This document shows positions 14,386 to 25,757 of a stretch of 25,757 bases of DNA, piece after piece. A program made the position numbers and the translations under genes. Origin of the DNA: an uncultured archaeon (GTDB lineage Archaea > Thermoplasmatota > Penumbrarchaeia > JASLWR01); assembly GCA_964342815.1 (NCBI GenBank), contig CAYFHS010000046.1, forward strand, positions 1 through 25,757. Direction: 5' to 3'. Position 1 is the stretch's first letter, and each line of letters opens with the position of its first letter. The notes beneath the pieces were generated by a model, which searched no databases, was not told where the DNA came from, and was given only the letters and a program-made list of their open reading frames with translations.

Positions 14386-15561
14386 TCAGATGCACTTCAA
14401 AACTATTTCCGCCACGTCCTTTATCTGCAGCTTCCCTCCGAGCTCCCCCTTCATTTTCAGATTATCCCGTGCCATGGCGAACACGTTATTGCAGGTCGGG
14501 CAGGCAATGGCCATAAGCTCCGCCCCCTTTGACACAGCCTCACGAACCAGTTTTTCACCAATGGCAAAAGCCTGGGTCTCATCCAATGCCTCGAACAGAC
14601 CGCCTCCCCCGCAGCACAACCCATCCTCACGATTCCGCTCGAACTCGAGAAGCTCGACCCCCGGTAATGACCTTAATACTTCTCTGGGTGCTTCCATCAC
14701 ACCACCGATCCTCCCGAGCTCACAGGGGTCGTGATAGATAATCTTTTTGTTCAGCGGTTTTCTGAGATCCAGCCGCCCTTCCCCGATCAATAATCTTATG
14801 TATTCCGTGGTATGCATAACACTGAACGGGAGATTGCCTACTATTAGTGGATAATCCTTCTTGAAAGCCAGGTAGCAGCTGGAGCAGTTTGCCAAAAGTA
14901 TTTTCGCTCCTTTTTTCCTTACGTTTTCCACATTGGCAATGGCAGCACTCTTCATCCTTCCCCCGCTGCCGAGGAAATAGAGAAAACGACCGCAGCATTG
15001 ATCAGTGCGTCCGGGAAGGCTTGCTGCGACACCTCCGGCTTTCAATATTTTCATAATTGCGGTCTCAACCCTGAAAAAGTTATAGGCCGTCTGGCAGCCC
15101 GGATAAAATACCACATCCGCTTTATCCAATTCAGGAAAATCCTCCCTCACCCATTCATCTCTCTTTTCTCTTGGGTAGCCGTACGGGTTTCCACTGGCAG
15201 TTATGTTCCCTTCCATTTCAACCAGGTTCTCCGGAATTTTTATGGCAGCACCGGTGAGCAACCATTCACGGGCTCCTACCAGCTTTTCCAAGAAAGGAAC
15301 GTAATACGGGCAAACATGATCGCAGATACCGCAGGCCGTGCAGATAAATGCCTTTGGTATGGAATTCTCTTTGGTGCCGTGAATATCTTCCCCATGCTCA
15401 AGCGACAGAAGGTACCTTGATATCTCCTGCGGTGTTGCCGTATTGCCGCCCTCCAGGACTATTCCGGGCCTCACCGTACATTGAGAAGTGCATAAGCCGC
15501 AGCTCGAACATAATCTGAAATAGTCTCGATGCGGTAAGGGGGCCACATTGTCCATCGGCAT
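14386..15561 (-). CDS. HdrD/GlpC-like (Fe-S)-binding oxidoreductase: 2x[4Fe-4S] ferredoxin plus two CCG domains
   Basis: CSSCGLCTSQC and CTACGICDHVCP. CCG motifs C-x32-CC-x35-CxxC and C-x35-CC-x36-CxxC, both complete. Confidence 0.85.
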   Translation of the reverse strand: MPMDNVAPLPHRDYFRLCSSCGLCTSQCTVRPGIVLEGGNTATPQEISRYLLSLEHGEDIHGTKENSIPKAFICTACGICDHVCPYYVPFLEKLVGAREWLLTGAAIKIPENLVEMEGNITASGNPYGYPREKRDEWVREDFPELDKADVVFYPGCQTAYNFFRVETAIMKILKAGGVAASLPGRTDQCCGRFLYFLGSGGRMKSAAIANVENVRKKGAKILLANCSSCYLAFKKDYPLIVGNLPFSVMHTTEYIRLLIGEGRLDLRKPLNKKIIYHDPCELGRIGGVMEAPREVLRSLPGVELLEFERNREDGLCCGGGGLFEALDETQAFAIGEKLVREAVSKGAELMAIACPTCNNVFAMARDNLKMKGELGGKLQIKDVAEIVLKCI

Positions 15562-15676
15562 AATTACACCCGGATCTCAGGAGATTCCAGTTGTATAATT
15601 CGTTACTCTTTTATTTCAAATCTATGGTCGTTTCTTTCCCGGTGGAAGGTCCCCCGAATCATTCCCGTGCGTTCAT

Positions 15677-17233
15677 CTATTTTTTCCTGATGCTAAGGAA
15701 GAAAATGACGACCAGCAGAACGGCGATCAAGATGGCCAGTATCCATGGAAGTGAATCCTCATCATCGTCATCATCGATTTCCTTTTCATCATTTTGCCCG
15801 TCCACTTCGCTTTTTTCTTCGACACTTCGGATCTCTTCCGCCATATGGTCTATCTCGACCCTATCCTGCAGTATTTCATAAAAACCATGCCACTGGACGT
15901 AGTCCGGGGCCATCATGAAAGCTCCCATGCGTGCCCTGCGTCCTTCATGGTGCCACATCTCGTAGATCTTGAATTCTATCGGTTCGTCGAAACTTGTATT
16001 GGTTAAAAGACCATCATCATAAAGTCCTGTAACAACCGCCTTTGCACTCAGATACTGCTCATTATACAACTCCACAACGAGGTCCGCCTGCTCATAGTAG
16101 TTATCCGTCCACGTTGTGGAATGGCACTGCTTGCAAACCGTTTTCATTCGATCCTGTTTCACCTGCCATGTGGAGCCATCACTGATAGGGTCCCCTAAAC
16201 TGTTGGCCGTATTATCCGTACGCTTGGATATCGCGCTCTCAAGCTCCCAGCTCAACCGGGAGCTGACATCGTGCGTTGTTGGGACTCCAGGGGCCGAGGA
16301 CATGTGACAGCTCGCACACGTAGGCGCCCGATAATCCACACCCGCCTTCCAATCGTCACTGGTCCAGTTCCACGTATCCCCTTCCGCCGAATAGATGTTT
16401 CCGTGCTTGGACTCGTAGTACATCTCTATCTGTGGATGATCCGGACCCATGTGACACTGGCCGCAGGTTTCGGGTTTTCGTGCTTCCACAACGGAGAATG
16501 AATGACGCGTATGACACGAAGAACAGCTGCCCTTGCTTCCGTCGGGATTGATGCGCCCGATGCCGTTATTGGGCCAGACCGTGAAATCCTCGGTTGACTT
16601 GCCCGTCATATTTGTACCGTGACATGATTGGCATCCACGGATGGTGGCTGCGTGAGTTATATTTTGACCGTCAACTGCGATGTATTCGCCCTCGATCTGG
16701 CTCTCGAGGTATGGTAGTTTTTCCTTATCGAATAGAAGCTCGTAATATTCGGTCCCGAATGAATGAAGGCTTTGTCCGAATTCCAAAACTTCCTTTTCAT
16801 GACATTTCCCGCAGTCTTTCGGTGAGACAACGGGAGAAATATAAAAACCGTTGTGGTCAAGGGCATCCGGATCGGTGGCCGCCGCCTCATGGCAATCGTT
16901 GCATGTAACGTTGCTCCCGGCGTGTTCGCTCATTTCCCAATCCTTTATGACGCCCCCCAGCACACCCTGCCTTTCGTGACAGCTTATACAGGGATCGGAT
17001 GTGCCGTTAGCCCTGCTACCCAGGAACAAATTATCCATTTCGGCCTGAAAAGCTCCATCCTCTACGTCAATGCGGTTCACGTTCTCGAGGGCTGCCCCCT
17101 CATCGTCCATTTCTCTTGGACCCAGGTAAAAACAAATTATTATGACAAAAATAGCTGTGAATGAAAAGAATAACCATTTACAAATACTAATTCGGCCAAT
17201 TCCTTTCATCAGCTTTTTCTGTGCTTCTGACAT
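15677..17233 (-). CDS. Octaheme cytochrome c, hydroxylamine oxidoreductase (HAO) family, membrane-anchored
   Basis: Eight CxxCH motifs (CISCH, CNDCH, CGKCH, CQSCH, CSSCH, CGQCH, CASCH, CKQCH). HAO-family GRINPDGSKGSC, GPDHPQIE..YESKHG and WHHEGRRARMG...PDY..WHG. Hydrophobic segments at both termini. GGAGGT SD. Confidence 0.88.
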   Translation of the reverse strand: MSEAQKKLMKGIGRISICKWLFFSFTAIFVIIICFYLGPREMDDEGAALENVNRIDVEDGAFQAEMDNLFLGSRANGTSDPCISCHERQGVLGGVIKDWEMSEHAGSNVTCNDCHEAAATDPDALDHNGFYISPVVSPKDCGKCHEKEVLEFGQSLHSFGTEYYELLFDKEKLPYLESQIEGEYIAVDGQNITHAATIRGCQSCHGTNMTGKSTEDFTVWPNNGIGRINPDGSKGSCSSCHTRHSFSVVEARKPETCGQCHMGPDHPQIEMYYESKHGNIYSAEGDTWNWTSDDWKAGVDYRAPTCASCHMSSAPGVPTTHDVSSRLSWELESAISKRTDNTANSLGDPISDGSTWQVKQDRMKTVCKQCHSTTWTDNYYEQADLVVELYNEQYLSAKAVVTGLYDDGLLTNTSFDEPIEFKIYEMWHHEGRRARMGAFMMAPDYVQWHGFYEILQDRVEIDHMAEEIRSVEEKSEVDGQNDEKEIDDDDDEDSLPWILAILIAVLLVVIFFLSIRKK

Positions 17234-17433
17234 TTTTCAAACCTCCACTTGAAATAGCGAATATCTTTGGAATATATAAATCTAATCACCGTATATTATA
17301 GGAGAATGGTGCAGTTTCCTTATGAGTTATTAATCGTTTGTAGACATGTTAATACTGGACAAATTCAACAGAAAAAAATAATCCGATAATAAGAGATGCA
17401 GGCGTAAGTCAGGTCCTGAAAATAATCTTACGA

Positions 17434-18009
17434 TCACCACAATGTTCCTTTGTAATGTCCTGTAACGGGACAGCCGCGACATCGTTTTCCATAGGCCGGA
17501 CAATCATTACAATTAGTTTCGACACCGCAAGGTGGCCTATTAGCCCGCGAAATATGCGTTGTTAGGGGCAAAACGAGTTTATTAGCAACCCCGATGACGA
17601 TATTGAATATCACATTTTGGATCTCATCGACCTGCCTAATATGACAATCCACAATCGCTTCAAGAGTGGCAACGTCTTCTCCTATGAAGAACAGACAGAG
17701 ATTGGATTCTCCGGAAACAATGAATCCATTCAGAAAATACGGACAATTCATCAAAGAATTCAACACTTTCGTGGTATTCTTGGTCGTCACATCCACCTTA
17801 GCAATGGATAAGCCGATCTTCAACAAATCCATCCCATACATGTTCTGAACGATTCCCGTTTCCTTTAATTTTTTCAAGCGGAGAGCCACCGACGGTTGGG
17901 ACAGCTCGACCTCCATTGCTATGGCATCCTGGGAAATATCCGGATTCTCACTGAGGATAGATATTATTTTTCGGTCCTTATCATCAAAATTCAGATTCGT
18001 TGATGTCAT
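17434..18009 (-). CDS. Lrp/AsnC family regulator with a Cys-rich C-terminal extension
   Basis: DDKDRKIISIL...ISQDAIAMEVELSQPSVALRLKKL HTH, a RAM-like domain (VSGESNL), and a tail CGVETNCNDCPAYGKRCRGCP. GGTGG SD favours the ATG at 18009. Confidence 0.82.
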   Translation of the reverse strand: MTSTNLNFDDKDRKIISILSENPDISQDAIAMEVELSQPSVALRLKKLKETGIVQNMYGMDLLKIGLSIAKVDVTTKNTTKVLNSLMNCPYFLNGFIVSGESNLCLFFIGEDVATLEAIVDCHIRQVDEIQNVIFNIVIGVANKLVLPLTTHISRANRPPCGVETNCNDCPAYGKRCRGCPVTGHYKGTLW

Positions 18010-18121
18010 GATAACCACCATTTATGGGAATGAATAAGATTGTATTATAATTTAGTATAACTTTATAATATATTGGAGAAAACTCATTAACACGAATATC
18101 TATTGGGTGAATTATTATAAC

Positions 18122-19330
18122 TTATGTGTTTTCGGTACTTGCTTTTTTCTTTAATTCCATTATCAATTCAGGAACGACCTGATATACATCCCCGACTATC
18201 CCAAAATCCGTGACGCTGAATATAGGAGCTTCCGGATCTTTATTTATAGCCACTATGACATCCGATGTCTGCATACCGGCCAAATGCTGGACGGCTCCTG
18301 AGATTCCGCAAGCAATATATAGTTTCGGACGCACTGTTCTCCCGCTTAATCCTACTTGATTTGCATAGGGGATCCATCCCTCATCCACGGCCGCGCGACT
18401 CGCTCCAACAGATCCTCCAAGTGCTTCTGCAAGCTCTTTCATCAATGTAAATCCATCGGATCGCCCCAATCCCTTTCCTCCAGCCACGATGATTTTAGCT
18501 CCAGTTATGTTGGCCCCATCATTATTTTTAAAAAAATCCATAATTTTCGTTCGATCCCTGATTATTGTTTGATCCACATATTTCCTGATGATTTCCCCTT
18601 CCGGATTCGGTTTCTTTTCCGCTTTACTCATTACTTTATATCTTACAGTGGCCATTTGGGGCCTGTGATTTGGGCATATTATCGTTGCCATCACATTTCC
18701 ACCAAATGCCGGTCTTGTTTGCACTAAAAGTTTTTTCTCTGCATCAATATCCAATTCGGTGCAATCCGCAGTAAGACCAGTTTTTAATCGAACAGCGATT
18801 CTCGGTGCTAATGAGCGGCCGATGGCAGTGGCTCCTATCAAAAATATGCTTGGTTTGATCTCCTCGACTAGATCTGTTATTAAAGCTGTGTAAGTGTCTT
18901 CTTTGAATTTAGCTAGTGATGTGTCGTTAAAAAGATATACTTTATCTACTCCATAAGTGATCAACTCATATGCAGAATCTTCCACCTCATTCCCTACAAG
19001 AACACAATATAGATCCTCTTTTACTTTATCGGCAAGCTCCCTTCCTTTACCGATTAATTCATAGACCACATCTGCAACCTTTCCCTCTCTCTGCTCCCCG
19101 AATACCAGGACTCCTCTATGCCGGGAAAAATCCTTTTTTTCTTTCCGAGTTATCAATATGGCTTTATTCTTACAGACGCCGACACATGCACTACAATACG
19201 TACAATTCTCATCTATCACTAATGATTCATTGGTAAACGATATGTAGCCAAACGGACAGGTTTTTACGCACCGTTGACATTTATTACAATTTTCTATGAT
19301 AATTTCTATTTTGGTCATATTGAACCTCAT
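18122..19330 (-). CDS. etfA: Electron transfer flavoprotein alpha subunit with an N-terminal 2x[4Fe-4S] ferredoxin domain
   Basis: CNKCQRCVKTCP and CTYCSACVGVC, then TGLTADC, TRPAFGGN, GASRAAVD, QVGLSG, GISGAVQH, AINKDPEAPIF. Start is 19330 (ATGA overlap) or 19318. Confidence 0.92.
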   Translation of the reverse strand: MRFNMTKIEIIIENCNKCQRCVKTCPFGYISFTNESLVIDENCTYCSACVGVCKNKAILITRKEKKDFSRHRGVLVFGEQREGKVADVVYELIGKGRELADKVKEDLYCVLVGNEVEDSAYELITYGVDKVYLFNDTSLAKFKEDTYTALITDLVEEIKPSIFLIGATAIGRSLAPRIAVRLKTGLTADCTELDIDAEKKLLVQTRPAFGGNVMATIICPNHRPQMATVRYKVMSKAEKKPNPEGEIIRKYVDQTIIRDRTKIMDFFKNNDGANITGAKIIVAGGKGLGRSDGFTLMKELAEALGGSVGASRAAVDEGWIPYANQVGLSGRTVRPKLYIACGISGAVQHLAGMQTSDVIVAINKDPEAPIFSVTDFGIVGDVYQVVPELIMELKKKASTENT

Positions 19331-20112
19331 ACAAGTTTAAGTTCACCCAATTTCTCGACGAGTTTCTTTGTTTTATCCGAGAGGGTACCGGTAAGAATTG
19401 TACCCTTTTTCCTTTTCCGGGGAGGAAATACCTTGATCACCTGCGTCGGTGAGCCGTTTAAACCATATCTACCTGAATGACCGTTTAAATCATTCGAATT
19501 CCATATTTTAATGCCAGTATTCAAAGAGAATATTTTTCCTTGTAAGGTAGGAAATCTTGGCTCGTTTGTCTCTTTGCTTATGGTCATCAGACACGGTAAA
19601 AGAGCGTTGACTGTTTCGTACCCCCCATCCACCATTCGTTCAACAAGCACACCCCCATTATTTACCTTTAGAATTTTTCTAACATAACAAACATTTGAGA
19701 TTTCTAATTCCTCTGCCAACCCCGGTCCAACTTGCGCAGTATCTCCATCGACGGTCTTCACACCACAAATAATGATATCAAAGCTACCTATTTTTCTAAT
19801 TCCACATGCAAGAGTAAAAGAAGTTGCTAGAGTATCCGCTCCCGCAAAGGTTTTATCCGAAAGAAGTACTGCATGCTCACACCCCATGGAAATAGCAAAT
19901 TTTAGGGCGTATTCCGCCTGCGGGGGTCCCATGCTTAATACTGTTACTTTACCGCCATAAGTCTCTTTGAGTCTAAGTGCCTCCTCAATCGCATATCTAT
20001 CGAATGGATTTACTGTGGAAAGAGTCCCTTCCCTCATCAAGGTGCCCGTCTCGGGGTCGATTTTTATCTCAGTACTGGCGGGTACCTGTTTGATACAGAC
20101 GATTATATTCAT
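19327..20112 (-). CDS. etfB: Electron transfer flavoprotein beta subunit
   Basis: VCIKQVP, NPFDRYAIEEA, SMGPPQA, GADTLATS, DGDTAQVGP, EPRFP. Confidence 0.93.
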   Translation of the reverse strand: MNIIVCIKQVPASTEIKIDPETGTLMREGTLSTVNPFDRYAIEEALRLKETYGGKVTVLSMGPPQAEYALKFAISMGCEHAVLLSDKTFAGADTLATSFTLACGIRKIGSFDIIICGVKTVDGDTAQVGPGLAEELEISNVCYVRKILKVNNGGVLVERMVDGGYETVNALLPCLMTISKETNEPRFPTLQGKIFSLNTGIKIWNSNDLNGHSGRYGLNGSPTQVIKVFPPRKRKKGTILTGTLSDKTKKLVEKLGELKLV

Positions 20113-20120
20113 TCCAACAC

Positions 20121-22745
20121 CTAAATGAGAGCAGCCAATTGTATAGGCTCGATCTTTCGATAAATTTCCAATGGTTTTCTTTTATGCCCTTCGACGGTAA
20201 GCAGTTCTTCGATTGATATCCCGAATAGCCTTTCATTCTCTTCCAGGTAAGGCAAAATGAGTGACCAGTCCTCATCAGTGGCGTCAATAAACTGACCGCC
20301 ATTTAGTTGATTTCCATCCACTACTCGGTGAGGATCTCTCAAATAGATCGCACCTCCTGAGGCTAAAGAAAAGAGATTACCACCAGGGTATGGAGTAGGT
20401 AGCTCCCTGATATTACCGCATTCGTCAAACTCAACCCCGTTTAAAATAACAAAACCGCCACCTCGAAGTGCATCACCGGCCATGAATGACTCCGCAAGAT
20501 AATCCAGACAAGTGCCGTTGATAACCACCCGGGGGTGCCCAACAGCATTTATGAGGGGACGTCCCGCAGCGTTGCCGCGTACATATATCTCGCCCCCCTT
20601 TGCACCATATAAAAATGTTTGACCTACATCACCATGTATAACCAATTTGCCATCCTTTAGAATCTGTCCAAGTTGGTCCTGGGCGCTGCCGTGAACAATC
20701 ACCTTGGCACCGTCCAAACCCGATCCCAGGTAGTCCCCCGAACTTCCATAAATGTCGATCCGCACATCCTCTGTGCCAGGACCAAGACCGCACCCACAAA
20801 ACCGCTGGCCTACAAGCGAAAAAACTATGAAACGCTTCCACTCGACTTTGTAAGCCTCAATAATGAATCTTTCAAGGCAATATTCTCCTTCCGGAGGAAA
20901 TTCACGGGCATTGATTACTAGAACTGCATTCTCCTTCAATGGTTTTTGTAAAAAACACCTTTCATCCCAATCGATGTACCAATATCGCCCAGGTATCTCA
21001 CACTGTCCTTTTTCCTGTTGGGTATTCCGAAAAGTATTGTAGAGGGTCTCGTCCAGCAATGCTAAACATGAACTATGTTTTTTTATTCCGGTATCATAAC
21101 GACGGTCATATAACATAGTTAGAATCTCTATGGAAAATGCCATTTTTTCATCATTTATTAAAGCAAATTGGGCCAAATAAGTACAGAGTTGCATGAACTC
21201 ATCATAGCTCCATTTTTTAAGGTTTGGAACTACCCAATTGAAAAACTTATCCGTTTTTCTACTTTCAAAATATTTTTCCACCTTTTTTTCTATTGAATTA
21301 AGAAATTTTGTCTCGGTTAATGGCTGTCCCAAATTGAGTGCTGAGATGTTATGGTGTTTCCGAGGGTTTGATGCAGTGATTACTTTTCCGAATTTATCGG
21401 TGCATGTTAATTTTTTTCCATTATTATCACCATTCTCTGCGAGAGTGAAGGAAAAAGCACCTCCATCGGTATGGCTCCCTCCCCTGGCATTCCAATACTT
21501 ATCCGCAATAGGACAAAATCTCGGGTCTTCGCCAGCCAGATTTCGTAAGGTGGCGTCAATAGCCTGTTTTTCCGAGGCTACGAGGCCAATGTCCACTTCT
21601 CCTTGCTGCAGTGCAAAGACTTGCGGGCGCAACATTGCCGTATCCGTGATACCCAATAACTGCATGGTATCGATATCCGGTTTGTTTCTTGCGATGATAA
21701 AGAACCAGGGGCCATCCGGAGATCCGTGAATATGAGTGGCCTGAATCGCTCTATAGATTTTTTTCTTATCTCCTGGAAGCATTATAAAATCTCTTTCTGT
21801 TGTCGGAGCCATCGCTTCGATGATATACTCCAGAGGATACTCGTAAATTCGATCCCATAGATCGAATAATTGAACCGATATCTCAGTATCGGTTAAGAAA
21901 AGTGGATGTATGTTATGTTGCTGCAGATATTCAGACACTGCATAATAGTTTGCAAAATCCCCATTATGAACCAAAGCTTCGTTCAATCCTATGAACGGAT
22001 GTGCGCCCCCGGGATGCCAAACACGCCCTTTGGTTGGATAGCGCTGGTGCCCCACCCATATATGTGCTTTAGCCCCCTCAAGTCGATAATATTGAATCAC
22101 TTGTTCCGCATAACCGACAATTTTAAAAACGAGCATATTTCGCCCGTGACATAGAACAAATGCTTTCTTTTCACCAAGAGAGGAATAAAAATGCTTGTTG
22201 AGTCGGACAGTGTTCTGATAGACGAATTCATCTTCGGCTTGTCGCAACTTAAGCTCGTCCAAACCGTTTTCTTTTATAAATCGAAGGAGAACATCTTTTT
22301 TAACGCGACAAAAATATCGCCACACATCGGGGGGTTTGATCTCCAGTCTCGGCACATCCTGATAATCCACAACTGTGGGGACAAGATAACTCTTGTGAAC
22401 CTCGAAAAATGGTCGTATACATTTATTCTCCACCGTTTTCCTGGCACTAGGGTCAAGAAAAGCAACCTGAATTAGATAATAATTTTCCAGAATATCTTGC
22501 GAAACTCCCATCTGCGCAGGTGAAAGACCCACAGCAACCACCCCGCCTCCCTTTCCATTCCCACGATTATGCATCTGGGCCAACGGAACCGAAATATTCC
22601 AGCCATCAATTTGCTCGCTACAGGCAAATCCAACCACACCGCAGCCACCTTCTGCCTCTACTTTTCGTTGTGATAAAGTAGGCAGATTATCGTATAATCC
22701 CTTCCTTGAGCTTTTGATCCGTTCTGCGAACAATATCCTATCCAT
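20121..22745 (-). CDS. Glutamate synthase-related subunit: class II glutamine amidotransferase (GltB domain 1) fused to a GXGXG beta-helix (GltB domain 3)
   Basis: EAEGG-CGVVG (putative N-terminal nucleophile Cys35 after a 34-aa propeptide), HNRGNGKGGG, GHQRYPT, HNGDFAN, TDTE, and C-terminal GSSGDYLGSG/GDVGQTFLYGAKGG/GNAAGRP repeats. Confidence 0.85.
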   Translation of the reverse strand: MDRILFAERIKSSRKGLYDNLPTLSQRKVEAEGGCGVVGFACSEQIDGWNISVPLAQMHNRGNGKGGGVVAVGLSPAQMGVSQDILENYYLIQVAFLDPSARKTVENKCIRPFFEVHKSYLVPTVVDYQDVPRLEIKPPDVWRYFCRVKKDVLLRFIKENGLDELKLRQAEDEFVYQNTVRLNKHFYSSLGEKKAFVLCHGRNMLVFKIVGYAEQVIQYYRLEGAKAHIWVGHQRYPTKGRVWHPGGAHPFIGLNEALVHNGDFANYYAVSEYLQQHNIHPLFLTDTEISVQLFDLWDRIYEYPLEYIIEAMAPTTERDFIMLPGDKKKIYRAIQATHIHGSPDGPWFFIIARNKPDIDTMQLLGITDTAMLRPQVFALQQGEVDIGLVASEKQAIDATLRNLAGEDPRFCPIADKYWNARGGSHTDGGAFSFTLAENGDNNGKKLTCTDKFGKVITASNPRKHHNISALNLGQPLTETKFLNSIEKKVEKYFESRKTDKFFNWVVPNLKKWSYDEFMQLCTYLAQFALINDEKMAFSIEILTMLYDRRYDTGIKKHSSCLALLDETLYNTFRNTQQEKGQCEIPGRYWYIDWDERCFLQKPLKENAVLVINAREFPPEGEYCLERFIIEAYKVEWKRFIVFSLVGQRFCGCGLGPGTEDVRIDIYGSSGDYLGSGLDGAKVIVHGSAQDQLGQILKDGKLVIHGDVGQTFLYGAKGGEIYVRGNAAGRPLINAVGHPRVVINGTCLDYLAESFMAGDALRGGGFVILNGVEFDECGNIRELPTPYPGGNLFSLASGGAIYLRDPHRVVDGNQLNGGQFIDATDEDWSLILPYLEENERLFGISIEELLTVEGHKRKPLEIYRKIEPIQLAALI

Positions 22746-22766
22746 ATGCCTTCGTCTTCCTATTTG

Positions 22767-25292
22767 TTATTGGCAATCATTAATATAAACGAGGCAATCG
22801 GTCCTACCGATTAGCTCTGTGATCTTTCTCATTCCCAGTGCATTCAATATCATACGCAATTGGATTTGCCATGACCGATACATGTTAACAATCCGCTTCA
22901 TACTTCGGTCTATATCAATAAGGCTACATCGGTTTGGATCAGTGGTTGTTATGCCCGAGGGGCAACCCTCGCCTTTCTCGCATTTACCATATCGCTCGCA
23001 CCCTATGGCAATCAATTCCGCCGAACCAATAACGGTACCATCCGCACCGAGTGCTATCGCCTTCGCTACATCATAAGCCGAACGTATCCCACCGGAAGCC
23101 ATAAGGATAACTTGATCTCTAATACCTTCTTCCAATAGAAATTTGTGGACCTTTGAAATTGCGTACTCGATTGGCATAGCAATGTTCTTCTTGCTGACCT
23201 CCGGTGCTGCACCTGTACTACCGTAACCCCCGTCCAAATGGATAATATTAGCACCGGCAAAATAACTGCCTACCGCAACCATATCCACATCCGTTGGAGT
23301 GGATACTTTAACCGAGATTAGTGCATGTGGATTTATTACTTTAATCCAGTCTACATGTTTTTTGTGATCCTCTACCGAGTAAACGCTGTGGAATGGAAAG
23401 GGGGAGTAGAGGCTCCTCCCGGCAACAGCTTCTCTAACTTCAGCCACTGACCTTGTAACCTTGCCCGCAAGCAGATGGCCTCCAAGACCGGGCTTTGCGC
23501 CTTGAGCATACTTAAATTCTACTATTCGTGCGCGTAGTATGGTCTCTTCTCGAACTCCAAAGAGGCCGGTGGCAACCTGGGTTATAACGTGGTCGGAATA
23601 AGGCACTAACTCCTGGGGATAACCACCTTCACCTGTTGAGATGAATGTACCAAGATATTTGGCTGCTCGTGCACGAGCAAGCATGACATTTAAGCTTATC
23701 GAACCAAAAGACATCCCCCCACCATAAACGGGGAAGGGTATCCGGATATGGGGCCCATCTCTCCGTTTGTTCAAATCGATGGATAAATCGATAGTGTTGT
23801 CATCTATCAATGGAAACTGTTCATTATTTTTTTCAAAAATAAACGCCAGTCTATCAAATCCCCCACCAGAGCATCCAATCCTATACTCGAGATTCGATGT
23901 CGGAGGTCTACCCGTACGAGCCTGTTCTGCTGTAGCTCTTAATAATTCCGGTGGCCAGCGATAGTCACCCGAGGCACGTTTTTCACTCTCAACTGTAGAT
24001 TTTAAAGATATGGAATTGGAAAATATATTACAAAATTTTTTCTCCTCGATCTCGTAGGAAATTGACCTCCCCATTTCTCCCCTTAACCGCCTTACTTCCC
24101 GCATACCCATTGCACCCAATACTTCCAACAATTGGTCTCGCCAGGCCGACATGAGGTTTACTATGCGTTGGGAACCCCAATTTGAGTTTATTTCCACATG
24201 CTCTACGGGACAGGGATAATATTCATCCGCCCAAAGTGCACAGCCCAATCCAACAAGGAGGGAAAAATCAATAGCTGCGCCATCCGCACCACATGCAATC
24301 ACCTTGGGAACATGCTCGGCACTGGCAATACCTCCGCTGACAATGAGACTAACCCTATCACGTATTCCCATTTCTACCAATCTTCTATGGACGAGCTGCA
24401 GTCTATCTTTTATAAAAAGCGGATCGGGCTCATATGGTTCCATGCCAACTTGGTCTGCATATAGGTGAATTACCTCCGCCCCGGCACCTACTAGCTTCTC
24501 AACTTGGTCACCTACTTTCCGGCTAATTGGCAATCTGATGGAGATAATTAGATTGGGGGCTTCCTTTTTTATTTTTATAAGGGATGAGATGGCATCACTA
24601 TGATCCAGATAATCAATCTCTACCATCTTTACTTTTAGTGGTTGTGTTTGAAATGAATCGAGATTCTTTAATGATAGACGAGGAACTATATTTTCAACAA
24701 ATGGTTGAAGATCGCTTGCCCAATATTTATCCTCCAAAAATACGAATGTACCGAGCTGAGATGCAGCTTTAACAATGGATAACAATACTCCTCGTCCATG
24801 TACTGGCATCACCGGGAAGGAAAATAAAACAGGGAACGGTACTTCGATATTGGGTGGCAACTCATCTAACAATTTACCTTTTGGATCGAATCTCAACATA
24901 GCTTTTTTCCTTCCTAAAGAAACTAATGTAGAGATATATTCACGCCCATGGATTCCGTCACGTGTAGGTCGCACAATTTCGGACATGTCCAACCACATTC
25001 CATCAAAACCAGATCCTGCGAATTTCCCACCAAAACCCGAACCCGAAATGGGAATTTTCCCGGTTTCCGCTTGATACCATATTTGAGTAATTATCTCAGG
25101 AGTCCAATATTTATCCCCTCCAATTCCAAGCTCAAAGGGAGAGTGTCCATATTTAACATATTCCTCGTCATCCTGAAGATTGAATCGGGCTGGATACGGA
25201 GTACAAAGAGGTGCATTTTTTCGAGCTATATGATATCGAATCGGAGGCCCGTGGTTTTCGGTCGTTGACCTTTTGTATTCATCATCGCTCAT
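22767..25292 (-). CDS. Glutamate synthase-related subunit with two tandem FMN-binding (GltB domain 2) domains
   Basis: C-terminal copy: GGMSFGSIS, TGEGG, QVATGLFGV, EFKYAQGAKPGLGGHL, KVS, LDGGYGSTGAAP, ASGGIR, GCERYGKCEKGEGCPSG. N-terminal copy: GFDGMWLDMSEIVRP, SGGIASAEHVPKVIACGAD. Confidence 0.85.
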   Translation of the reverse strand: MSDDEYKRSTTENHGPPIRYHIARKNAPLCTPYPARFNLQDDEEYVKYGHSPFELGIGGDKYWTPEIITQIWYQAETGKIPISGSGFGGKFAGSGFDGMWLDMSEIVRPTRDGIHGREYISTLVSLGRKKAMLRFDPKGKLLDELPPNIEVPFPVLFSFPVMPVHGRGVLLSIVKAASQLGTFVFLEDKYWASDLQPFVENIVPRLSLKNLDSFQTQPLKVKMVEIDYLDHSDAISSLIKIKKEAPNLIISIRLPISRKVGDQVEKLVGAGAEVIHLYADQVGMEPYEPDPLFIKDRLQLVHRRLVEMGIRDRVSLIVSGGIASAEHVPKVIACGADGAAIDFSLLVGLGCALWADEYYPCPVEHVEINSNWGSQRIVNLMSAWRDQLLEVLGAMGMREVRRLRGEMGRSISYEIEEKKFCNIFSNSISLKSTVESEKRASGDYRWPPELLRATAEQARTGRPPTSNLEYRIGCSGGGFDRLAFIFEKNNEQFPLIDDNTIDLSIDLNKRRDGPHIRIPFPVYGGGMSFGSISLNVMLARARAAKYLGTFISTGEGGYPQELVPYSDHVITQVATGLFGVREETILRARIVEFKYAQGAKPGLGGHLLAGKVTRSVAEVREAVAGRSLYSPFPFHSVYSVEDHKKHVDWIKVINPHALISVKVSTPTDVDMVAVGSYFAGANIIHLDGGYGSTGAAPEVSKKNIAMPIEYAISKVHKFLLEEGIRDQVILMASGGIRSAYDVAKAIALGADGTVIGSAELIAIGCERYGKCEKGEGCPSGITTTDPNRCSLIDIDRSMKRIVNMYRSWQIQLRMILNALGMRKITELIGRTDCLVYINDCQ

Positions 25293-25596
25293 CTTTCATG
25301 TCACCGTGATTAAATGTTGTTCAACTTTACCTAAAAAAGTTCTTTTGTTAGCCTGATAAATTGGACCTTATCTGTGATACTTTGTCGAATATAGGAACTT
25401 AAGCAATGTTTATTTGGCTGCAGTTGATGCTTTCATCAATATATAAGAATTATTCTAATAATGTCACTCAATTGTATGGAATTTTTTAATATTTGCGAAC
25501 ATTGTCTATTAATATTGAAAAATAGACGAATATTTTATTAATATGTATGGCGTTTTCCGGTTAAGCGATTGGTAAAACTAATGTGGAAGGGGTTCT

Positions 25597-25757
25597 ATGG
25601 ATAAACTAGATGCAAAAATAATAGGAGCTTTGAACGAGAACGCGAGGAAGAGCTTCAGAAAAGTCTCAAGGGATCTCGGAGTATCACTCAGCACTGTTGC
25701 CAATAGGGTTAAGAGACTTGAGGAAAACGGTGTTATAACTAGTTACATACCATTGAT
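25597..25757 (+). CDS. Lrp/AsnC family regulator, N-terminal HTH (truncated by the window edge; not in the ORF track)
   Basis: Manual translation gives MDKLDAKIIGALNENARKSFRKVSRDLGVSLSTVANRVKRLEENGVITSYIPL. It is divergent from the gltB-etf operon. Confidence 0.88.
   Translation, partial: MDKLDAKIIGALNENARKSFRKVSRDLGVSLSTVANRVKRLEENGVITSYIPL

Follow-up and report, generated by a model that had tools for sequence, protein, structure and literature searches.

Which protein supplies electrons to a glutamate synthase that is encoded beside an electron-transfer flavoprotein (ETF) instead of GltD? The question is raised by a four-gene block at positions 18122-25292 of the window analysed here, i.e., the whole 25,757-nt contig (C46) of a 4.35-Mb metagenome-assembled genome (MAG) of a marine archaeon. 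The MAG is 88.9% complete and belongs to the Thermoplasmatota; its nearest named relative is 'Candidatus Thermoplasmatota archaeon'. The known electron donors of glutamate synthases are GltD (with NAD(P)H), ferredoxin, and, putatively, F420H2. The known clients of bifurcating ETFs are acyl-CoA dehydrogenases, lactate dehydrogenase, and quinone reductases. A first-pass annotation, made from the sequence letters, had proposed that the block encodes a candidate ETF-coupled, possibly electron-bifurcating, glutamate synthase. Based on sequence comparisons, we consider it likely that the ETF is the working electron donor of the synthase. That the system also reduces ferredoxin, i.e., carries out true bifurcation, falls a little short of an even chance by analogy with known ETFs.

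The two synthase genes are located on the minus strand at 22767-25292 (subunit 1, 841 aa) and 20121-22745 (subunit 2, 874 aa). Both had been labelled gltB at first, which was a mislabel. The genes are not copies; the two proteins are complementary halves of one rearranged GltB-like enzyme and together form a permuted, split glutamate synthase. All four GltB domains are distributed across the two proteins, in the order central-flavin mononucleotide (FMN) and then amidotransferase-insert-beta-helix, instead of the single-chain order amidotransferase-central-FMN-GXGXG. The GltB equivalog model NF008730 gave 209.5 and 17.7 bits for the two proteins, below its cut-off of 1047.

Subunit 1 consists of a central-domain-like barrel (residues ~20-430) and an FMN synthase barrel (~505-835). 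The Pfam Glu_synthase family (PF01645) matched residues 509-821 with 335 bits, and a second, weak stretch was found in the N-terminal half. The alignment to residues 866-1179 of Bacillus subtilis GltA (7MFM_G) covers 311 residues, in which QGAKPG and GEGG are conserved. C765, C771, and C777 match the cysteine triad of GltA, with a one-residue insertion, and are the predicted ligands of a [3Fe-4S] cluster. The two motifs and the three cysteines are invariant in 41 subunit 1 homologues. The AlphaFold model of subunit 1 (predicted local distance difference test, pLDDT, 79.7) aligned over its full length with GltS large subunits (TMq 0.56-0.60; 841-886 columns), and the GltS regions matched by the whole model were the central and FMN domains. 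A ferredoxin-like domain is absent from subunit 1. In the N-terminal central-like domain, the segment WLDMSEIVRPTRDGIHGRE (residues 100-118; window 24939-24995) is invariant in the 41 homologues, and residues 105-117 have a pLDDT <50 despite this invariance. Perhaps the segment contributes to an interface or a tunnel and depends on subunit 2. Judged by this conservation, the N-terminal domain would not be degenerate filler.

Subunit 2 starts with a 34-residue leader, followed by an N-terminal nucleophile (Ntn) amidotransferase domain from Cys35, a helical insert (~480-575) for which no counterpart was named, and a GXGXG beta-helix (~645-810). The Pfam match to GXGXG is clear (52.9 bits; cut-off 32.5), and that to GATase_6 is borderline (27.2 bits). 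Cys35 lies within GGCGV. C35, RYPT (235-238), HNGD (260-263), and DTE (286-288), which, by comparison with PurF, GlmS, and GltS, mark an active Ntn glutamine amidotransferase, are invariant in 50 subunit 2 homologues. The best Foldseek matches of the subunit 2 model (pLDDT 80.3) were GltS large subunits, followed by PurF and GlmS. A genuine glutamine:2-oxoglutarate amidotransferase is the best explanation of these sequences and models.

The ETF genes follow on the same strand, EtfB at 19327-20112 (261 aa; Pfam ETF, 129 bits) and EtfA at 18122-19330 (402 aa; Pfam ETF, ETF_alpha, and Fer4 matched). EtfB corresponds to the small subunit of bifurcating-type ETFs. The best solved relatives of EtfA are CarE of Acetobacterium woodii (6FAH_A, 424 bits), LctC (7QH2_A, 335 bits), and the EtfA proteins of T. 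maritima (318 bits), C. difficile (302 bits), and A. fermentans (295 bits), whereas the non-bifurcating, AMP-containing ETFs of human and Paracoccus scored 175 and 153 bits. EtfB scored 191-227 bits with its closest solved relatives, namely CarD, LctB, and the EtfB proteins of C. difficile, T. maritima, and A. fermentans, against 75-79 bits for non-bifurcating ETFs. The Methylophilus ETF, like those of human and Paracoccus, scored far lower than the bifurcating set. The five best solved matches of each subunit are all experimentally bifurcating or confurcating. The window ETF scored below the NCBIfam cut-offs of AcrAB and EftB.

The motifs agree with these scores. EtfA carries TRPAFGGN at 205-212, and EtfB carries DGDTAQVGP at 122-130 together with a recognition-loop-like PRFPTL. 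The first two segments lie around the second flavin adenine dinucleotide (FAD) and are presumably diagnostic of a bifurcating ETF. Across 46 EtfB sequences, there is no variation at D122-G-D-T, Q127, G129, or P130. The N-terminus of EtfA contains C-x2-C-x2-C-x3-C-P and C-x2-C-x2-C-x3-C-K within a 2x[4Fe-4S] ferredoxin-like domain (~8-65), and the alignment to CarE begins at EtfA residue 8 and thus covers this domain. The pair is of the CarDE/LctBC-like, bifurcating type, judged both from the scores to solved ETFs and from an EtfA tree, which was the group placement that the first-pass annotation had called for. The TRPAFGGN motif and the CarE-like iron-sulfur domain that it had recognised in EtfA are both present. 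The domain is not needed for linkage with a synthase, as Anaerolineae versions of the linked EtfA lack it.

The four open reading frames are co-oriented and closely packed. The spacing is 21 nt between subunit 1 and subunit 2 and 8 nt between subunit 2 and EtfB, and EtfB and EtfA overlap by 4 nt, just as first described. No known high-potential partner of a bifurcating ETF (Bcd/CarC, LctD, or FixCX/EtfCX) is encoded in the operon; the neighbour of the ETF is the synthase. The early statement that gltD, acyl-CoA dehydrogenase, and fixCX are absent holds for what was scanned: none was found among the neighbours at 14386-18021 or among the genes listed for L015, a near-identical contig that runs on into molybdenum-cofactor genes.

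Is this arrangement peculiar to one genome? A genome scan provided 80 species-level synthase loci, and an ETF adjoins the synthase in five of them. The order subunit 1-subunit 2-EtfB-EtfA is kept in a MAG of the same genus (L015/G077; 92-93% identity) and in two more distant loci, L116 and L018 (EtfB 72%, subunit 2 ~70%). A further contig (L117; EtfB 70%) is cut within subunit 2, of which the C-terminal 27 residues are encoded, and EtfB follows after 8 nt. The same order is found in a 'Micrarchaeota' MAG (L037), with an ETF identity of 54-57%. In four Anaerolineae species the order is reversed, EtfB-EtfA-subunit 1-subunit 2, with overlaps of 1-8 nt and an EtfA without the ferredoxin domain. 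The linkage thus occurs in at least three sequence-distinct locus sets and in two gene orders, and the synteny suggested as a check at the outset extends to distant lineages. Only the four genes are common to all ETF-linked loci; there is no shared fifth gene, and no acyl-CoA dehydrogenase, FixCX, or LctD is common to them. OsmC was considered as a fifth conserved partner and rejected; the 145-aa gene after EtfA in L037 encodes a cupredoxin. A metagenome scan with EtfA returned two loci, one of them a 92% relative, and was uninformative on breadth.

The EtfA tree grouped the window-type clade (support 96) with Lct-type ETFs and L037 and placed the Anaerolineae clade (support 99) elsewhere. In the subunit 2 tree, the two ETF-linked sets fell on different major branches (support 99). 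These topologies suggest that a synthase-linked ETF was recruited at least twice. In an approximately unbiased (AU) test of separate origins of the synthase-linked ETFs, however, a single clade was not rejected (p = 0.0955); the group tested was chosen after the tree had been seen.

One position of subunit 1 is associated with the linkage. Residue 682 (window 23247-23249), at the start of the barrel strand before GGYGSTGA, is Asn in 11 of the 11 ETF-linked loci carrying subunit 1; Asn was read in L015-L018, L037, L043, L053, L085, L090, L103, L114, and L116. L103 belongs to the Anaerolineae ETF clade and is without its upstream flank. The residue is His in 66 of the 69 other readable loci, and the exceptions (L108, L110, and L113) are longer or split and have no adjoining ETF gene that could be found. 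N535 and Y413 of subunit 1 have a similar, weaker bias. The association involves two or three lineages only and is offered as a lead from the alignment.

The synthase itself belongs to a family that, by sequence, appears very large and highly conserved across phyla, at about 60% identity. Among 8000 candidates scored, at least 7707 relatives of subunit 2 had E <= 0.001, and the best 120 were 56-93% identical and came from Anaerolineae, Desulfobacterota, Latescibacteria, and other groups. In Chloroflexota, a fused 840-aa subunit 1 without a ferredoxin domain dominates. An unfused form was found on three bacterial contigs, where a ~465-aa central-like protein is followed by a ~520-aa FMN protein and then by subunit 2. 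The N-terminus of the unfused FMN protein carries CxxCxxCxxxCP and a second cysteine cluster, i.e., a 2x[4Fe-4S] domain. Unfused forms (L011, L012, L014, and L113) lie in or abut FlpD/MvhD-MetF-MetV-HdrCBA-like clusters, and in L014 the FlpD gene stops 2 nt ahead of the first synthase gene. Every ETF-linked subunit 1 is of the fused form without a ferredoxin domain. As the fused subunit 1 lacks the domain that its unfused relatives carry, the electron-entry site is left exposed and the donor is interchangeable. The electron-entry modules found in this family are an ETF, MvhD/MetFV/Hdr proteins, a GlcD-like protein, or none. No biochemical paper on the family was found in a full-text search that covered few subscription journals.

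The GlcD-like module was seen in long relatives. Seventeen proteins of more than 1530 aa (P0397-P0413; 1606-3345 aa) are 29-44% identical to subunit 2 and contain GltS FMN and GXGXG domains in one chain; most also contain GlcD-like FAD_binding_4 / FAD-oxidase_C. All three pairings therefore exist, namely synthase with GlcD-like, ETF with GlcD-like (L118 and L119), and ETF with synthase.

The best bacterial matches of the window subunit 2 are 59-65% identical (61% for the Anaerolineae locus L034), and those from other Thermoplasmatota families are 49-56% identical. No match to subunit 2 is present in two other genomes of the window's own family. Sequence identity hints that the operon was laterally acquired.

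Our reading is that the four genes specify one enzyme system in which EtfAB would take the place of GltD as the dedicated electron-input module. EtfAB is read as the donor because the [3Fe-4S] entry site has no built-in relay and because EtfAB are the sole redox proteins travelling with the synthase in these lineages. Ferredoxin would be the most likely destination of the second electron, given the bifurcating type of the ETF. In the proposed mechanism, the beta-FAD of EtfB would be reduced by NADH. Ammonia released at the Cys35 glutaminase site of subunit 2 would be tunnelled and combine with 2-oxoglutarate to form 2-iminoglutarate, which the FMN would reduce to glutamate. The other, low-potential electron would pass through the two [4Fe-4S] clusters of the N-terminal domain of EtfA to ferredoxin. 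The net reaction would be 2 NADH + 2 Fd(ox) + 2-oxoglutarate + Gln -> 2 NAD+ + 2 Fd(red) + 2 Glu, where Fd is ferredoxin. What we infer from the gene content and the protein types is that the proteins associate physically, that NADH is the donor, and that electrons take this path and bifurcate. A complex prediction with EtfA 71-402, EtfB, and subunit 1 440-841, each with an alignment, scored 0.00, which speaks neither for nor against binding.

The 2-oxoglutarate/glutamate couple is about -0.14 V, which would leave room for an exergonic branch. In the Azospirillum glutamate synthase, the [3Fe-4S] cluster has a potential of -280 mV, or -190 mV with 2-oxoglutarate, and the FMN one of -240 mV (PMC8097209). 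In the Acidaminococcus EtfAB, the alpha-FADH- couple is -36 mV in the free protein and -228 mV when docked (PMC7948398). These potentials, all borrowed from enzymes of other organisms, would not forbid the proposed path, and the thermodynamic argument made in the first annotation appears reasonable beside them. Taken at its fullest, the proposal would be a new class of flavin-based bifurcating enzyme. NADH oxidation by EtfAB would be coupled to an exergonic branch, glutamate synthesis, and to an endergonic one, ferredoxin reduction, and the module would have arisen more than once, since archaea and Anaerolineae both have it. This full reading is tentative, and we would place it somewhat below even.

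The first alternative is that the ETF is a plain wire between NADH and the synthase. The enzyme would then be an NADH-dependent glutamate synthase with EtfAB in the place of GltD and with no net ferredoxin reduction, and both NADH electrons would end in the synthase, via the alpha-FAD and the [4Fe-4S] domain of EtfA or in a second turnover. All of the linkage evidence fits this alternative equally well. EtfA carries a 2x[4Fe-4S] domain of the kind that the synthase has lost, and this domain could feed the [3Fe-4S] cluster. However, the synthase-linked EtfA of Anaerolineae has no ferredoxin domain, so the domain is not a general route into the synthase. Both ETF subunits are also far closer to bifurcating than to non-bifurcating ETFs, and, to our knowledge, the NADH-oxidising two-FAD ETFs characterised so far bifurcate. 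A precedent in favour of the wire is the ETF of the Fusobacterium Ldh/Bcd cluster, for which a canonical, non-bifurcating role is reported (PMC12630350). We regard the plain wire as unlikely.

The second alternative is that there is no coupling. The synthase would use ferredoxin, EtfAB would serve orphan acyl-CoA dehydrogenases or a GlcD/LctD-like enzyme, and the adjacency would be accidental or reflect co-regulation. Several results weigh on this side and against an ETF-driven synthase. The synthase stands without an adjoining ETF in 75 of the 80 species-level loci. About 35 of 401 Thermoplasmatota genomes contain the synthase, and an ETF lies beside it in the window's genus only; among the Thermoplasmatota with the synthase, the ETF is encoded elsewhere in nine, as checked by coordinates, and no EtfB match was found in four. 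Most fused synthases without the ferredoxin domain have no donor gene nearby, so the core enzyme probably works with free ferredoxin. The next nearest ETF relatives, outside the synthase-linked clade (61-63% identity; L118 and L119), are without a synthase and adjoin LctD-like (GlcD-like) dehydrogenases. No ETF-synthase fusion was found among the 17 long relatives, which is weak evidence. Within the genome, four of the six acyl-CoA dehydrogenases lie away from any ETF, and two GlcD-like dehydrogenases are not next to any ETF. These proteins could be clients of the window ETF.

The absence of coupling is nevertheless improbable in our view. Lineages as far apart as Thermoplasmatota, a DPANN-labelled MAG, and Anaerolineae have the linkage, in two gene orders and with genes that overlap at their stop and start codons. 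ETF identity falls to 54% without loss of the linkage, and no other gene is common to the loci. The genome encodes three ETF pairs, and the other two already adjoin an acyl-CoA dehydrogenase each. Three stand-alone GltD-like proteins are all paired with an NfnA/PyrK-like gene or with PreA-like (DHO_dh + Fer4) genes, so no free GltD is left for the synthase. The first-pass annotation had named cognate partners elsewhere and a linkage confined to this genome as grounds for giving up the idea. The other ETF pairs and the GltD-like proteins have their own partners, but the unpartnered acyl-CoA dehydrogenases and GlcD-like proteins remain. Similarly, the linkage recurs but is rare; most synthase relatives have no adjoining ETF, so ferredoxin alone may also serve.

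The third alternative, a confurcating oxidation like that of Ldh-EtfAB in which glutamate (or another amino or 2-hydroxy acid) and reduced ferredoxin would reduce NAD+ in amino-acid fermentation, draws on the Lct (confurcating) type of the nearest ETF relatives, on the fusion of distant synthase relatives to GlcD-like dehydrogenases, and on a peptide-fermenting lifestyle put forward only in the first annotation, but it is very improbable, as the Ntn glutamine-hydrolysing site that is invariant in 50 homologues would be useless in that direction, the 2-oxoglutarate/FMN site matches true GltS, an ordinary glutamate dehydrogenase is present for catabolism, and homologues occur in nitrogen-assimilation contexts (GlnA, NadE, and CTP/GMP synthases).

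We return to the favoured reading, in which EtfAB feeds the synthase. The genome contains one glutamine synthetase and one glutamate dehydrogenase, and no other complete glutamate synthase was found in the 88.9%-complete MAG. A 604-aa protein on contig C33 (12253-14067; L021 4253-6067), in which GXGXG is fused to a divergent GltS-type FMN barrel, was considered as an alternative synthase; its gene comes straight after that of an aromatic/histidine ammonia-lyase, and no amidotransferase partner was found nearby. Two PreT/PreA-like pairs (GltD-like plus DHO_dh/4Fe-4S) are located on contigs C7 (9749-12324) and C6 (50016-54883). One of them stands beside a class-III aminotransferase and a carbon-nitrogen hydrolase and looks like an archaeal reductive pyrimidine degradation cluster.

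The operon is preceded by an AT-rich spacer of 304 nt (25293-25596), the presumed promoter or control region, which is shared with a divergent Lrp/AsnC-family regulator gene. The 5' part of this gene lies at 25597-25757 on the plus strand and runs off the window (Pfam HTH_AsnC-type, E 4e-15); L015 has a complete AsnC-type protein of 146 aa in the corresponding position, to which the fragment is 96% identical. In L116, three AsnC-type genes lie upstream of the synthase-ETF operon. A GGTGA occurs 8 nt 5' of the ATG of subunit 1, and the sequence leaves a 100-nt spacer directly downstream of the four-gene block. A promoter and terminator scan gave counts at chance level, with a bacterial consensus unsuited to an archaeon. 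The 7.2-kb operon stretch is present in marine and seawater DNA runs only; no RNA run was listed with it. In Chloroflexota, the recurrent neighbours of the synthase are glutamine-dependent NAD synthase (NadE), a GAF kinase with an ANTAR regulator, and glutamine synthetase (GlnA); synthase homologues also lie near CTP/GMP synthases. The divergent Lrp/AsnC regulator and the GlnA, NadE, and ANTAR neighbours point to a nitrogen-metabolism context.

Beyond the 3' end of the operon, the neighbours scanned at 14386-18021 encode an Lrp-like regulator, an octahaem cytochrome, and an HdrD-like protein. In L015 (8314-8921), HdrD-like and OsmC genes lie downstream of EtfA with one short open reading frame between. 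In the window (15677-18021), an Lrp-like regulator with a cysteine-rich tail and the octahaem cytochrome gene stand between EtfA and the HdrD-like gene. The gap looks like an insertion/deletion difference inside the genus.

Nitrogen assimilation in this marine archaeon probably runs on NADH via EtfAB, as far as gene content can tell. If so, a bifurcating ETF as synthase donor would add a partner class to both protein families. In energy-limited anaerobes, the ferredoxin pool would also become tied to central nitrogen assimilation, which would regenerate low-potential reductant. If the reading is true, the four proteins would form a tractable soluble system for following how an ETF hands electrons to an iron-sulfur cluster instead of a flavin. 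No paper on an ETF-linked glutamate synthase was found in a full-text literature search with few subscription journals covered. The system differs from the described glutamate synthases and from the described ETF-dependent systems, and it recurs across distant lineages.

How does the system compare with those already known? The closest folds are the GltB/GltD enzymes of Azospirillum brasilense (1EA0, 2VDC, and 6S6S) and Bacillus subtilis (7MFM), which share the four domains and the catalytic and cluster residues. Unlike these, the window enzyme is split and permuted, its subunit 2 is only ~12% identical and has an extra helical insert, and the operon contains no GltD; the EtfAB pair lies where the gene of the donor subunit would be. 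The ferredoxin-dependent enzyme of Synechocystis (1OFD and 1LLW) is one chain of ~1500 aa with a ferredoxin-binding loop, whereas the window enzyme is split and has a dedicated flavoprotein in its operon. N-methylglutamate synthase MgsABC is a non-redox system of three separate GltB-domain proteins, the genes of which lie with those of gamma-glutamylmethylamide synthetase and N-methylglutamate dehydrogenase. It was rejected as an identity for the locus, which has two fused chains, an ETF, and no such neighbour genes. In split archaeal-type synthases, including putative F420-dependent ones with FrhB-like modules, each of several genes encodes part of the GltB domain set, and the input modules differ from lineage to lineage (PMC9012536, PMC3448663). 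The window enzyme differs from these in that the amidotransferase and GXGXG are in one chain, the central and FMN domains are in the other, and the donor would be an ETF; no FrhB/FpoF-like F420H2-oxidising domain was found by Pfam in the four proteins or the scanned neighbours. Members of the same family with FlpD/MvhD-MetF-MetV-HdrABC-like (L011-L014 and L113) or GlcD-like modules have the same catalytic core, with subunit 2 54-62% identical. Their FMN subunit has a 2x[4Fe-4S] domain, or else they come with another flavoprotein; in the window form the domain has been lost and the neighbour is EtfAB.

On the ETF side, CarCDE (6FAH), Ldh-EtfAB/LctBCD (7QH2), Bcd-EtfAB (5OL2 and 4KPU), and EtfABCX (7KOE) are the closest systems to the window EtfA (424-295 bits) and EtfB (227-191 bits). 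As in CarE and LctC, EtfA has an N-terminal 2x[4Fe-4S] domain, and, as in the bifurcating complexes, the ETF genes share an operon with the presumed high-potential acceptor. The partner, however, is a biosynthetic iron-sulfur FMN amidotransferase, which belongs neither with the acyl-CoA dehydrogenases nor with the GlcD-type dehydrogenases or quinone reductases, and the acceptor of the ETF electrons would be an iron-sulfur cluster instead of a flavin.

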